In this document: positions 25,307-49,166 of the stretch, in pieces
Layout: each line of letters opens with the position of its first letter
How positions within the stretch are numbered: position 1 is the stretch's first letter
Origin: Rhizobiaceae bacterium
GTDB taxonomy: Bacteria > Pseudomonadota > Alphaproteobacteria > Rhizobiales > Rhizobiaceae
NCBI GenBank assembly: GCA_035547755.1
Contig: DASZUG010000055.1
Location: forward strand, 5,562-69,561
DNA length: 64,000 nt
Direction of reading: 5' to 3'
Notes under the pieces: model-generated
What the model was told of the DNA's origin: nothing
The model's input: the letters and a program-made list of their open reading frames with translations, nothing else
Database searches by the model: none
Made by a program: the position numbers and the translations under genes

Positions 25307-26161
25307 TTGAAAGCTGTCGTTCTCGTCTCGCTCCTGCTGCTATCGGGCTGTTCCGATGGAATCGGGCTGATCAATGTTATTTCTCCGCATAAGGGAACCG
25401 CGGTCGAAACGGGCGTCGCCTACGGCAGCGACCCCCGGCAGCGAATGGACATCTATCTTCCCGGCAAGAGGAAGAGAGCGTCGCCCGTCGTCGTCTTCGT
25501 CTATGGCGGCAGTTGGCGCAGCGGCAGCCGCAAGGATTACGGTTTCGTCGGAACCGCTCTTGCGAGACAGGGCTTCATCGTCGCCATTCCCGACTACCGG
25601 ATTTATCCGGATGCCGTCTTTCCGGTCTTTGTCGAGGATGTCGCCAAGGCCGTCGCAGCGGTTTCCCGCACCCTAGCAAAAAGTCGGCCGATCATCCTGA
25701 TCGGTCATTCCGCCGGAGCACAGATCGCCGCGCTCATTACGCTTGATCCACGCTATCTGAAGGCGGACGGCATCGATGTATGCCGGAAAATCGCCGGCTT
25801 CGTCGGCCTTGCCGGACCCTATGATTTCAAGCCGCCACGACAACTCTACAACCGGATCTTCCCCAAGCCGCTTCTTGCGGCGAGCAGGCCGATCAATTTT
25901 GCGGGGGGACATCATCCGCCGTCGCTTCTCATCAGTGGAACGTTCGATCTGGTCGTCAATCCCAAGCAGACAAAAGAATTGGCAGCGGCCCTCAGGCGCT
26001 CCGGGAACGACGTCAGGACAGCACTTTATCCGCGGCTCGGTCATGTGACGCTGATCGGAACGCTTGCGCCGCCGCTCCGGCAATTCGCGCCAACGCTGAA
26101 GACCGTTTCCGCCTTCGTACGGGAAGAAAGCCGGAAGGCTCCGCCCTATTGCAGGGGCTGA
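25307..26161 (+). CDS. Alpha/beta hydrolase (esterase/lipase), probable lipoprotein
   Basis: LLSGC lipobox, FVYGGSW, GHSAG nucleophile, D..V, YPRLGHV catalytic His. Confidence 0.87.
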   Translation: MKAVVLVSLLLLSGCSDGIGLINVISPHKGTAVETGVAYGSDPRQRMDIYLPGKRKRASPVVVFVYGGSWRSGSRKDYGFVGTALARQGFIVAIPDYRIYPDAVFPVFVEDVAKAVAAVSRTLAKSRPIILIGHSAGAQIAALITLDPRYLKADGIDVCRKIAGFVGLAGPYDFKPPRQLYNRIFPKPLLAASRPINFAGGHHPPSLLISGTFDLVVNPKQTKELAAALRRSGNDVRTALYPRLGHVTLIGTLAPPLRQFAPTLKTVSAFVREESRKAPPYCRG

Positions 26162-26784
26162 GAAACGCCTCGACCGGGATGCGGCAGCACCCGCCTCAGA
26201 AGGGTACGGTAAACCTCTTGCCGCTTGCCGGGCCCCATGGCGGAAAACATCCGCAACTGGCCGGAATTCACAAGTTCGGCGATGCCGTGGACCATCGCCC
26301 AGGCGGCGGCTATATCGGGCGCGGCGGCGTCCTCGTCGTCGCTGCCCTTTGCGGCACAAACCGCTTCCACAAGGGCCTTGTAGGCGGCGGTCGCAGCTTC
26401 GCCGAGAACAGGATCGGAAAAATCGGGCTTGTCGGAAGAGAACATCAACTTGAACAACGCAGGTTCGGCGGTAGCGAAATCGATATAGCCAAGGCCGATT
26501 GCAACGAGTTGATCGGCGGCATCTTCTTTGGCTTTGGCACTCCTGGCGGCCATCGCGGCGGTCAAGCGAGCATAGGCCACCGCGGCAAGGGCGGTCAGCA
26601 GGGCGTCGGCGTCGCGAAAGTGATGCGCCGGGGCTGCATGGGAAACGCCCGCCCGCTTGGCGCAGCCACGTAGCGTAAATCCCTCGATCCCCTTTTCCTT
26701 AAGTTCCTCCTCCGCCGCTTGCAGCAGCGCGTGGCGAAGGTCGCCATGATGATAAGGCCGATTCCCGCCCTCGACATTGTCCAT
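26146..26784 (-). CDS. TetR family transcriptional regulator
   Basis: YHHGDLRHALL, FTLRGCAKRAGVSHAAPAHHF HTH, AWAMVHG. Confidence 0.93.
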   Translation of the reverse strand: MDNVEGGNRPYHHGDLRHALLQAAEEELKEKGIEGFTLRGCAKRAGVSHAAPAHHFRDADALLTALAAVAYARLTAAMAARSAKAKEDAADQLVAIGLGYIDFATAEPALFKLMFSSDKPDFSDPVLGEAATAAYKALVEAVCAAKGSDDEDAAAPDIAAAWAMVHGIAELVNSGQLRMFSAMGPGKRQEVYRTLLRRVLPHPGRGVSQPLQ

Positions 26785-26854
26785 TTCAACTCCGCTTGGT
26801 TCGCAGCAATTCGGGCGCCGCCCCCGTCTTAGTCGAAAAGCACGGATGGATGCA

Positions 26855-26893
26855 ATCTTTACGATGGAAAGTTTATCTTGACTTTGTAAAGAT
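26855..26893. promoter_or_regulatory. Two tandem 19-bp imperfect palindromes, putative TetR operators
   Basis: ATCTTTAC-GAT-GGAAAGTT (26855-73) and ATCTTGAC-TTT-GTAAAGAT (26875-93) in the divergent promoter region. Confidence 0.65.
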
Positions 26894-26936
26894 TACATCC
26901 GATCATGCCTGTGTCTTTGGTTCGTGGAGGTCGCGC

Positions 26937-27386
26937 ATGGATCCCGACACTATCTTCAGAACGGCGAACCTGTTGGCGCTCGCCGGCTGGCTCGTGCTTT
27001 TGGCGAGTCCTCTTTGGCCGTGGCAGGCCGAACGGCTTTCCGGTCTCGCGATTCCGCTTTTGCTCTCGGTCGCCTATTGCGGGCTGATCTTCGCGTTCTG
27101 GACAAGCGGGAAGGGCGGTTTTTCCAGCCTCGGCGATGTGGCCCGTCTCTTCCAGACACGGCAATTGCTGCTGGCTGGCTGGATCCATTATCTGGCGTTC
27201 GATCTCTTCGTCGGCGCGTGGATTGTGCGTACCTCCAGGTCGGAAGAGATCCGGTTTTGGGCGGTCGTTCCCTGCCTCGTCGCCACTTTCCTGTTCGGCC
27301 CCGCCGGCTTCCTTCTCTTCAATGCCATCCGCTCAACGAAAAGCATCGCGGCGCAGCCCGGGATGAGCACAAAGGTGATGTCATGA
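26937..27386 (+). CDS. DUF4281/ABA4-like membrane protein
   Basis: LAGWIHYLAFDLFVGAWI and LFGPAGFLL motifs; SD GGAGG. Confidence 0.85.
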   Translation: MDPDTIFRTANLLALAGWLVLLASPLWPWQAERLSGLAIPLLLSVAYCGLIFAFWTSGKGGFSSLGDVARLFQTRQLLLAGWIHYLAFDLFVGAWIVRTSRSEEIRFWAVVPCLVATFLFGPAGFLLFNAIRSTKSIAAQPGMSTKVMS

Positions 27387-28237
27387 GTATTGTCGAAATT
27401 TCTCGCGCTCCTTCCATCGGCCGTCCTATCGCGATCAACTGGCTCAGGGAGCTTTCGGCCCGTCAATCCGCGTTGACCGGCGCCGGCGTCCTGCTTGTTG
27501 TCGCCATGCTTCCGATGGGATTCGCTTTCCTGCTTGATACACGTCTTTTCAACGGTATCGACGTCTGGATCAAGCCGCTCAAATTCGCCCTTGCCGTCGC
27601 CATCTACATGTTCACGCTGGCGTTCTTCGCCAGTTGGGTCGATGAAAAGGTGGGAACGGCGCGCTGGTTTCGCGTGCTTTCCTGGGCGACCGCAAGCGCC
27701 GGAACGCTCGAAGTCTTCTACATCGCCTTGCAGGCGTCCCGTGATGAGGCCTCGCATTTCAACTACACCGACAATTTGCATATGGCGCTTTACGGGTTGA
27801 TGGGCATCGGTGCGACGCTGATGATCAGCTTCTCGGCGATTCTCGGCATTCTCATCGCACGCAACGGCAAGCTTGACGTCGCGCCGGTCATTAAAGACTC
27901 GGTCGTGCTCGGGCTGACGCTCGCTTTCGTGCTGACGCTCATCCCGGCCGGAACCATGAGCGCCATGGGCAGCCACTGGATCGGCGGGGTCCATTCCGAC
28001 GCCGGCGGCATGACGCTCACGGGCTGGTCGCGCGACGGCGGCGATCTTCGCGTGGCGCATCTTTTCGGGACTCATGCGATGCATTTCATCCCTGCCTTCG
28101 GCGTCGTCTCGGCCCTGGTGCTGGGGCCTGAGAAGCGCTGGCCGGTGTGGCTGTTTACGGTCGTTTTCTGCGGGTTTGTCGCCTTCCTCTTCTTCCAGGC
28201 GCTTGCTGGGCAGCCTTTTCTTCCGAGGTTGCATTGA
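27383..28237 (+). CDS. Multi-pass membrane hypothetical protein, coupled to the ABA4-like gene
   Basis: ATGA overlap; WIKPLKF, SHFN, GDLRVAHLFGTHAMH; several TM helices. Confidence 0.8.
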   Translation: MSIVEISRAPSIGRPIAINWLRELSARQSALTGAGVLLVVAMLPMGFAFLLDTRLFNGIDVWIKPLKFALAVAIYMFTLAFFASWVDEKVGTARWFRVLSWATASAGTLEVFYIALQASRDEASHFNYTDNLHMALYGLMGIGATLMISFSAILGILIARNGKLDVAPVIKDSVVLGLTLAFVLTLIPAGTMSAMGSHWIGGVHSDAGGMTLTGWSRDGGDLRVAHLFGTHAMHFIPAFGVVSALVLGPEKRWPVWLFTVVFCGFVAFLFFQALAGQPFLPRLH

Positions 28238-28253
28238 AGGGACGAGACAACTG

Positions 28254-28268
28254 TTAACGCTTTGTTAA
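28254..28268. promoter_or_regulatory. Perfect CtrA box
   Basis: TTAA-CGCTTTG-TTAA; reads TTAA-N7-TTAAC on the minus strand. Confidence 0.65.
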
Positions 28269-28289
28269 TCAACTTGTCTCATTCTCAGG

Positions 28290-28357
28290 CTATCGAATCG
28301 GTTCTCCTCCTCCCAAACCGATCGAAATTCGGGCGGTCCCATGACCGCCCTTTTTGT
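28290..28357 (+). ncRNA. Candidate cuckoo-type sRNA (CCUCCUCCC loop) ending in an intrinsic terminator; 5' end estimated
   Basis: 10-bp stem 28293-28303/28316-28325 with loop CTCCTCCTCCCA, then GGGCGGTC-CCAT-GACCGCCC-TTTTTG. Confidence 0.65.
28331..28357 (+). terminator. Intrinsic terminator
   Basis: 8-bp GC-rich stem GGGCGGTC/GACCGCCC plus TTTTTG. Confidence 0.8.
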
Positions 28358-28432
28358 TCCTCTATCATGTCCGCGTGACGGCTTGCCGCCGATCCCTCGA
28401 TCTGCCATGTGAGGGGCAGAGAGGAGACCGTC

Positions 28433-29188
28433 ATGAGTTCAGCGAAAGTCGCCATCATCACCGGTGCGGGAAGCGGCATCGGCAAGGCCAGCGGCATCAC
28501 GCTGGTGAGGAACGGCTGGAACACCGTTTTCACGGGACGACGTCTCGACGTGCTCGAAGAAGCTGCAAAGGCGGCAGGCGGCGGAAAAGGCAGGGCGCTT
28601 GCGGTGCGCTGCGATGTCTCCAAACCGGAACAGGTGGACGCTCTCTTCGAAAAGGCGGTCAAGGAATTCGGCCGCGTCGATCTCCTCTTCAACAATGCCG
28701 GCCGCGGCTATCCGTCAACGCTGATCGACGAGATCCCGGTCGAGGTCTGGCGGGACGTGGTGGACGCCAATCTGACCGGCTCATTCCTGTGCGCACGGGC
28801 GGCGTTCCGGCAGATGCGGCGGCAATCGCCGATGGGCGGCCGTATCATCAACAACGGCTCGATCTCCGCCTATGCACCGCGGCCGGGCTCCGTTCCCTAT
28901 ACGACGACGAAACACGGCATTTCCGGCCTGACGCGCACATTGGCGCTCGACGGTCGCCCCTTCGACATCGCCTGCGGCCAGATCGATATCGGTAACGCGA
29001 TGACCGAGATGGGCGCCCAGATGACCAAGGGCGTGCCGCAGGCGAACGGCCAGATCGCTGTGGAACCAGTAATCGACGCCCAGATCGTCGCGGATGCCGT
29101 GCTGCATATGGCGAGCCTGCCGCTCGACGCCAACATCCTCTTCATGAACGTGATGGCGACGAAGATGCCCTTCGTCGGCCGCGGCTAA
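28433..29188 (+). CDS. SDR family oxidoreductase
   Basis: TGAGSGIG, NNAG, NNGSIS, YTTTK catalytic motif. Confidence 0.93.
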   Translation: MSSAKVAIITGAGSGIGKASGITLVRNGWNTVFTGRRLDVLEEAAKAAGGGKGRALAVRCDVSKPEQVDALFEKAVKEFGRVDLLFNNAGRGYPSTLIDEIPVEVWRDVVDANLTGSFLCARAAFRQMRRQSPMGGRIINNGSISAYAPRPGSVPYTTTKHGISGLTRTLALDGRPFDIACGQIDIGNAMTEMGAQMTKGVPQANGQIAVEPVIDAQIVADAVLHMASLPLDANILFMNVMATKMPFVGRG

Positions 29189-48611: not shown

Positions 48612-48769
48612 CGTCCAAACCCCCGATATGGTTCCTGTCTCTATCGGTCACAGGCGTGATTTTTTCAACCCGGCCGTCATTTTTCATTGAATGGTCATCA
48701 ATTTCCACTTATATCCCGGTCGCCCAAAGTCGCACGTGCCTGTGGGCGTCCCCCGACCCTCGAAATGGC

Positions 48770-48980
48770 GAGGAAATCGGGACGGTACCCGGGACCTAAC
48801 GAGCCCGGTCGGTCAAGCGGCCAACCGCCTGAACCGAGGACGCCTTGAAGCAACGACGGTGCGGGCCTTTCTGGTGTCTGCCGGTCGTCCATAGACCGGG
48901 GTTACTGAAGAGGCACACCTTCATTGCCGGCAGTGCGGATCGGTTCTCCCAATCCAAAGCTGAGGCAGACAAAGCGAGCA
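48770..48980 (+). ncRNA. speF leader (alphaproteobacterial cis-regulatory RNA); boundaries approximate
   Basis: ~550-bp intergenic upstream of ornithine decarboxylase containing GACGGTGCGGGCCTTTCTGGTGTC..ACTGAAGAGGCACACC..TCATTGCC, which I recall from the Rfam speF family. Confidence 0.65.
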
Positions 48981-49166
48981 GTCGCCCGAGGGCGGTCGCT
49001 CATCGCCGCGTGATACACGCATCATGGTTCCGGGGTCTCCACCGGCTGGCGCCATGACGCTTTGCATCACGTCCTTTGTCCAAAGCGGAACCCGTGGCAG
49101 GGCGCCCGGAACCCGCAGCAGCTTGACGCGGTTCCCGCAAGGAGACCGCTTGATGGAGAGAGACCG

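Follow-up and report, generated by a model that had tools for sequence, protein, structure and literature searches.

Introduction

Among the small RNAs (sRNAs) of the Rhizobiales, EcpR1, GspR and NfeR1 are known to touch the cell cycle, and they react to stress or to nitrogen. Of these, NfeR1 (SmelC397 of S. meliloti) is grouped with RSs0680/CcsR of Rhodobacter in the ar14/cuckoo family (RF02344), whose members consist of two to four adjacent hairpins, each with CCUCCUCCC in its loop (PMC4615179). A single neighbourhood, CIN1 with the OG1 gene, has been reported for the cuckoo RNAs of the Phyllobacteriaceae (PMC4615179). NfeR1 acts through CCUCCUCCC at ribosome-binding sites and thereby silences the mRNAs of ntrB, gdhA and several cell-cycle genes (bioRxiv 10.1101/2025.11.14.688489).

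The RNA CcnA of Caulobacter crescentus (182 nt) is encoded in the replication origin, carries a CCCC loop, acts on the ctrA and gcrA mRNAs and accumulates with CtrA~P; a CcnA-like RNA could not be clearly discerned in S. meliloti (PMC8959179). Full CtrA sites of Caulobacter with their 5' base in the -35 region (e.g. -39 at ctrA P2) switch transcription on in predivisional cells (PMC4287350; PMC11264516).

Here, a locus is described in which a CtrA-type box, one hairpin with a cuckoo-type loop and an intrinsic terminator follow each other in a 64-kb stretch of DNA, the whole of which is referred to below as the window. It is very probably a real, previously undescribed regulatory RNA gene of ~65 nt that is conserved in Mesorhizobium and its relatives.

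Results

Anatomy of the predicted RNA

The features of the locus and of the flanking genes are listed in Table 1. The RNA from 28291 to 28356 (66 nt) was predicted to fold into two hairpins with a free energy of -26.4 kcal/mol, a value matched by 0 of 200 shuffled sequences (z = -5.6). Hairpin 1 has a 10-bp stem with one bulge, on which the 12-nt loop CUCCUCCUCCCA is presented. It is followed by a linker of 5 nt and by the terminator hairpin, whose stem spans 28331-28350 and whose CCAU loop is without the anti-Shine-Dalgarno motif; the T5 tract occupies 28351-28355. The motif in the loop of hairpin 1 is unpaired in the minimum free energy and centroid structures of both the window RNA and six orthologues; these orthologues, from six other lineages, all adopted the identical two-hairpin architecture on folding. 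Inside the predicted sRNA, neither an ORF nor a start codon with a Shine-Dalgarno sequence was found, and the RNA is without coding potential.

Table 1. Features of the sRNA locus and its flanks (positions in the window; all on the strand shown)
Feature	Position	Strand	Remarks
Gene for 437-aa multi-pass membrane protein	26924-28237	+	Upstream neighbour; stop codon 16 nt before the box; no Pfam family
CtrA-type box TTAACGCTTTGTTAA (TTAA-N7-TTAA)	28254-28268	+	Spans the predicted promoter's -35 region
-10-like hexamer CATTCT	28280-28285	+	11 nt 3' of the box; putative assignment, from conservation
Predicted sRNA, ~64-66 nt	28292-28355	+	Promoter geometry, folds, covariance model R1 (62.4 bits); putative start, 3' end in the U-tract
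Hairpin 1	28293-28325	+	Arms 28293-28303 and 28316-28325; one bulged A
Loop CUCCUCCUCCCA, exposed anti-Shine-Dalgarno (cuckoo-type) motif	28304-28315	+	Unpaired in predicted folds
Rho-independent terminator GGGCGGUC-CCAU-GACCGCCC + U5	28331-28355	+	8-bp stem, 7 G-C
Putative sigma70-like promoter of the SDR gene (CTTGCC, 17 nt, CCATGT)	28382-28410	+	CTTGCC-like hexamers recur
Short-chain dehydrogenase (SDR) gene	28433-29188	+	Pfam PF00106; downstream neighbour

CtrA-type box and predicted promoter

TTAA-N7-TTAA occurs once in the window, compared with 0.08 occurrences expected from shuffles. The whole 4.6-Mb genome contains 20 such boxes, of which a minimum of 18 fall outside ORFs of at least 150 aa. 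Several of the other boxes adjoin canonical genes of the CtrA regulon, namely minC, ftsK, rcdA (encoding a DUF1465 protein), a gene for an FtsE-like ABC ATPase, two genes for outer membrane beta-barrel proteins and the gene for a class-A penicillin-binding protein (PBP1). An orthologue of ctrA is present in the genome (NF045991, 424 bits versus a cut-off of 350).

Alignment A3 (n = 40) comprises sequences that were not chosen for the box. Its half-sites are fixed, whereas the 7-nt spacer is variable and the 40 columns upstream are unconserved; over alignments A1 and A3, the TTAA half-sites are invariant or nearly so, while the spacer of the box and the upstream DNA vary. The hexamer located 11 nt past the box in A3 (CATCAT, CATTCT or TATCCT) contains an invariant A, followed by a T that is at least 90% conserved. 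Because of this conserved -10-like sequence, transcription would start at ~28292 (28291-28293), at the foot of hairpin 1, with the 5' base of the box at about -38. A full TTAA-N7-TTAA site is thereby placed over the -35 region of a predicted promoter, the position from which full CtrA sites activate in Caulobacter (PMC4287350; PMC11264516). The motif suggests that the box is bound by CtrA; in principle, GTTAAC-N5-GTTAAC could also serve another regulator.

The box is part of a longer imperfect palindrome (28244-28281) with 7-nt outer arms, GAGACAA ... TTGTCTC. Part of the palindrome is retained in the closest relative (G005) alone and is absent from the other genomes, so that it is probably without function. 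Two overlapping or tandem TTAA-N7-TTAA-like boxes were observed 5' of the sRNA at two loci, L008 (genome G006) and L202 (G104).

These results bear out the computationally testable parts of the initial annotation of this DNA, which had described a perfect CtrA box, a stem with the motif in its loop, a strong intrinsic terminator and a single motif module. All four were recovered, the three sequence elements in the places indicated; the box is the only one of its kind in the window, and the single module was seen on folding, with the terminator as the second hairpin. The start near 28290 and the ~65-nt RNA, postulated there for the case that the box overlaps the -35 region, agree with the start predicted from CATTCT.

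Conservation and covariation

By BLAST, the locus was recovered from each of the nine other genomes of the same genus, which consists of uncultured MAGs, as a single copy, and also from two further genera. In the resulting unselected alignment, no variation is seen in the two half-sites (TTAAC and TTAA), in the loop or in the terminator. A pattern scan of species-representative genomes extended the distribution to at least 120 species, including Mesorhizobium, Aminobacter, Pseudaminobacter, Kumtagia and many MAGs.

To count the unit, a pattern independent of stem and terminator was used (TTAA-N7-TTAA, 25-50 nt, CCTCCTCCC), with the reversed pattern as a control. Within the family, it was found in 100 of 401 genomes (46 of 135 genera), nearly always once per genome, as opposed to 5 of 401 genomes for the reversed control. 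The rest of the class yielded 4 of 400 genomes with the pattern and 2 of 400 with the control, so that the unit is not above chance there. It is therefore specific to the GTDB Rhizobiaceae sensu lato, chiefly to the Mesorhizobium complex; about a third of the sampled genera of the family carry it.

A covariance model, R1, was built on the RNA part alone to avoid circularity with the box. Its scores in 151 genomes of the family were bimodal: 55 genomes contained exactly one match of at least 38.8 bits (62.4 bits at the focal locus), and the remaining matches, among them ar14 copies and terminators, reached at most 37.8 bits. For the best 30 matches, from 30 genomes, a box was found 49-55 nt 5' of the loop motif, perfect in 25 cases and with one mismatch in 5. 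Twenty lower matches (36-53 bits) have stems unrelated to that in the window; 10 of these are preceded by a perfect box and 4 by a one-mismatch box in the same place, and two true three-hairpin cuckoo RNAs among them are without one. Outside the family, R1 gave a single match (40 bits), which lacks a box. The combination of box, loop and terminator is far above chance.

CCTCCTCCCA is present in 36 of the 40 sequences of alignment A3, and the stem of the terminator is nearly invariant in alignments A2 and A4. Compensatory changes were detected in 7 of the 9 modelled pairs of hairpin 1 (48 distinct sequences). Over the whole structure, compensatory double changes occur at 10 of 19 pairs and 93.8% of the cells pair in the model-based alignment of the 48 sequences; fitting of this alignment to the model favours the structure, and the wholesale stem replacements seen in distant members are independent of the fitting. 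The observed values were reached by 0 of 500 column shuffles and by no slid register. Applied to the raw MAFFT alignment, RNAalifold returned the terminator only, because the bulge of hairpin 1 shifts that alignment; hairpin 1 was then supplied by hand and re-tested on the model-based alignment.

The 5' arm of hairpin 1 contains GAATC (28295-28299), which is a GANTC site as methylated by CcrM. The site is limited to lineages with the GAATC variant of the stem; most Mesorhizobium sequences read GGATC.

Genomic neighbourhood and alternative origins of the RNA

Synteny was established by targeted tblastn; an earlier clustering of ORFs had chained spurious high-GC ORFs. The upstream neighbour is a DUF533 gene at 109 loci and a gene of the 437-aa membrane protein type at 16. 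In Mesorhizobium, the DUF533 gene lies on the same strand and stops ~28 nt before the box. Both this gene and that for the 437-aa protein lack a separate terminator, and read-through transcripts are therefore likely to stop at the sRNA terminator as well.

This arrangement raises the question of whether hairpin and terminator form the 3'UTR of the upstream mRNA, from which a small RNA is released by processing, with the box in another role or as a roadblock or repressor site. Read-through and processing could yield part or all of the RNA, given the closeness of the upstream stop codons and the lack of another terminator, and in a few genomes (loci L194, L196, L212 and L171), single hairpins that share the loop motif and have no box stand right after gene ends. 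Nevertheless, such an origin is improbable, since the upstream gene has been replaced between lineages while box, -10 hexamer, RNA and SDR gene have stayed together, and since box and -10-like hexamer are kept at promoter spacing whereas the DNA between stop codon and box is not conserved. By analogy with 3'UTR-derived sRNAs that have an internal promoter, both origins could coexist.

An orthologue of the SDR gene (~74% identity) is located directly downstream on the same strand at 118 of the 127 loci with enough sequence. The element could thus be a cis-acting leader or attenuator, with a CtrA-dependent promoter driving the SDR gene and hairpin and terminator modulating read-through. In a crude ranking of loop pairing over 3322 gene starts, the ribosome-binding region of the SDR gene was the 20th best partner (-18.8 kcal/mol), which would fit this reading. 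It is very improbable all the same: the terminator is a strong one with almost no variation, and the predicted structures contain no alternative, anti-terminator fold. Moreover, a conserved CTTGCC-N17 promoter-like element intervenes between terminator and SDR gene; CTTGCC-like hexamers are found 3' of the terminator at most orthologous loci and remain beside the SDR gene when the spacer grows from ~60 to 250 nt. Pairing between the loop and the SDR transcript is only mildly better than background over 111 loci (median -13.0 kcal/mol, 14th percentile), which also makes the adjacent SDR gene a not compelling candidate for a specific target. With the upstream gene swapped between lineages and the SDR gene under a putative promoter of its own, the RNA therefore looks like a transcription unit in its own right, placed between two others.

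At four loci of distant genera of the family (L198, L200, L201 and L209), the gene 5' of the boxed sRNA ends with ...GQPFL..., like that for the 437-aa protein. Because of this shared C-terminal motif, the membrane protein neighbourhood may be as old as the DUF533 one. The region 26146-28237 of the window comprises a divergent TetR gene (PF00440/PF13305), which faces a 174-aa ORF and the gene for the 437-aa membrane protein; the latter two gave no Pfam match at E <= 0.001. Elsewhere in the window, two Rfam elements score above their gathering thresholds, the sRNA ar45 (48722-48870, plus strand, 161.9 bits) and, directly 3' of it, a speF leader (48879-49025, plus strand, 85 bits).

Relation to described RNA families

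The focal locus matched no Rfam family at gathering thresholds. Under relaxed conditions, ar14 (RF02344) was the sole meaningful match; it reached 28.9 bits (E = 8.6e-4 on 301 nt), where the gathering score is 58.8, in an alignment that puts the first ar14 hairpin onto promoter DNA and includes non-canonical pairs. By the gathering score, the focal RNA is thus outside ar14. Two other loci of the genome pass this score, with 102 and 76 bits, and both are without a CtrA box. The feature that the focal RNA shares with the cuckoo RNAs is a CCUCCUCCC loop carried by a stem of 6 bp or more (CUCCUCCUCCCA on 10 bp with one bulge), which is conserved in the orthologues. The family has two to four such hairpins, whereas the focal RNA has one, its second hairpin being the terminator with the loop CCAU. 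Its neighbourhood is not CIN1: a gene for a membrane protein or a DUF533 protein lies upstream and the SDR gene downstream.

The term 'cuckoo-type' used in the initial annotation accordingly holds as a description of the presumed action of the RNA and fails as a statement of family membership, for which an Infernal search against ar14 had been suggested as a check. Lack of loop conservation in relatives had been named there as evidence against the proposal; relatives do keep the loop, and with it the box, whose position is fixed.

Two further weak matches to ar14, at C2:108928-109003 (27 bits) and C28:2707-2782 (24 bits), were rejected as candidates, as they are only gene-end terminators with CCUCCC loops. 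These loops (at L004 and L005) read UUUCCUCCCCC and UGUCCUCCCGC; C-rich, anti-Shine-Dalgarno-like loops on ordinary terminators seem to be common in this genome.

BjrC1505 (RF02356) gave no match on 28150-28450 at E <= 10, which places the focal RNA outside this family as well. The genome contains a copy of BjrC1505 at C47:38386-38527 on the minus strand (L193:1501-1642; 62.6 bits), upstream of rcdA (DUF1465). It sits behind a TTAA-N7-TTAA box, TTAACCACTCATTAA, and a second full CtrA box is found between BjrC1505 and rcdA. Among the 20 boxes of the genome, only the focal one and that of BjrC1505 precede an anti-Shine-Dalgarno motif and a terminator within 230 nt. As judged from sequence, the focal RNA is neither ar14/cuckoo nor BjrC1505 and is classified as a predicted single-module anti-Shine-Dalgarno sRNA with a CtrA-type promoter. 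That it is an ordinary ar14/cuckoo member which degenerated by loss of hairpins, with an incidental box, is scarcely credible: the weak full-length ar14 match and the identical loop motif would fit, but the score is below half of the gathering value, there is one motif hairpin in a different neighbourhood, the two true ar14 copies of the genome are without a box, and conservation of the box in more than 100 species excludes an incidental one.

Candidate targets and published transcripts

A seed scan of the genome returned 283 sites with perfect complementarity of at least 8 nt just before possible starts, a result too unspecific to name targets; the 12-nt anti-Shine-Dalgarno seed is unspecific. 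The ribosome-binding site of ctrA took the 97th place in the loop-pairing ranking mentioned above. As a conserved target, ctrA was rejected, because genomes that encode the sRNA (median -10.3 kcal/mol, n = 8) show no improvement in its pairing over genomes that lack it (-11.4 kcal/mol, n = 22). The comparative pairing tests, conducted for the SDR gene and ctrA, thus gave no conserved specific target.

Full-text literature searches yielded no description of the focal RNA and no published transcript tied to the locus. MH_s37, from a screen in M. huakuii 7653R (PMC5596092), is an RNA of 65 nt with flanking genes on the same strand and no Rfam family that was detected only in nodules. It belongs to the chromosomal interval 5845302-5845459 (minus strand), with counts of 0 in free-living cells and of 141 and 236 in nodules, which would be the earliest expression data for the focal gene if the two are identical. 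It fits the focal gene in size and context, in a comparison by description only, as the paper gives no sequence. MH_s36 from the same screen was excluded as the focal RNA by its probe sequence (PMC5596092).

Discussion

The locus is best explained as an independently transcribed, CtrA-activated anti-Shine-Dalgarno sRNA gene, a reading to which we assign a probability of about 0.7. The anatomy of the sequence, its single copy per genome, the synteny and the deep conservation of box, -10 element, loop and structure are observed; we infer the transcription start, the dependence on CtrA, the pairing mechanism and the targets. CtrA~P bound to TTAA-N7-TTAA over the -35 region would activate a promoter with the -10 element CATTCT, and transcription from ~28292 to the intrinsic terminator would produce a two-hairpin RNA of ~65 nt. 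Its first hairpin would display UCCUCCUCCCA in a loop of 10-15 nt, which would pair with the GGAGG-rich Shine-Dalgarno sequences of target mRNAs and block ribosome loading, as with the multi-hairpin NfeR1; by this analogy, occlusion of the ribosome-binding site by the loop is the most likely mechanism. The terminator hairpin and the U-tail probably serve as the Hfq-binding module. The expected output would be a pulse of translational repression once per cycle, in predivisional cells. With a CtrA site in the promoter and a hairpin that masks ribosome-binding sites, the RNA may couple the control of translation to the cell cycle.

Being a single-copy sRNA gene that has kept its CtrA-type box in over 100 species, the locus offers, for the Mesorhizobium group, a directly testable candidate for an RNA output from the CtrA circuit. 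The cuckoo anti-Shine-Dalgarno module would exist as a one-hairpin gene under a different regulatory input. This one-hairpin class is missed by searches that need at least two motifs and by the Rfam ar14 model. In unannotated genomes, the gene can be located with the covariance model R1 and with a simple DNA pattern.

A more far-reaching proposal, which we regard as rather unlikely, is that the focal RNA and the CtrA-boxed BjrC1505 together represent the RNA arm that is missing from the cell-cycle circuit of the Rhizobiales, and a functional counterpart of CcnA. A pulse of rRNA-mimicking anti-Shine-Dalgarno RNA, timed by CtrA~P, would then transiently damp mRNAs with strong Shine-Dalgarno sequences in predivisional cells, including cell-cycle and envelope genes of the kind silenced by NfeR1 (dnaA, divJ, minC, ftsK). 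If this were true, expression would be phased by translation and not by transcription alone.

Among the described systems, ar14/cuckoo has a loop motif, CCUCCUCCC, identical to that of the focal RNA. Both come from the same bacterial group and are short, trans-type RNAs with a Rho-independent terminator at the end, and both are presumed to act by pairing with ribosome-binding sites. They differ in that ar14/cuckoo RNAs are multicopy, whereas the focal RNA is present in single copy per genome, and in that the focal promoter carries a CtrA-type box, whereas NfeR1 responds to nitrogen stress. BjrC1505 (SmelC671, Sm84) is likewise an alphaproteobacterial sRNA with a C-rich anti-Shine-Dalgarno loop, and its copy in this genome has a similar spacing between box and -10 element. 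With ~100-140 nt, another fold, the loop GCCUCCCUG, a position upstream of rcdA and no detectable homology, it is a separate gene. CcnA has no evident sequence relation to the focal RNA and resembles it in design, with a CtrA box in the promoter and a C-rich loop that pairs, or in the focal RNA would pair, with a 5'UTR or ribosome-binding site.
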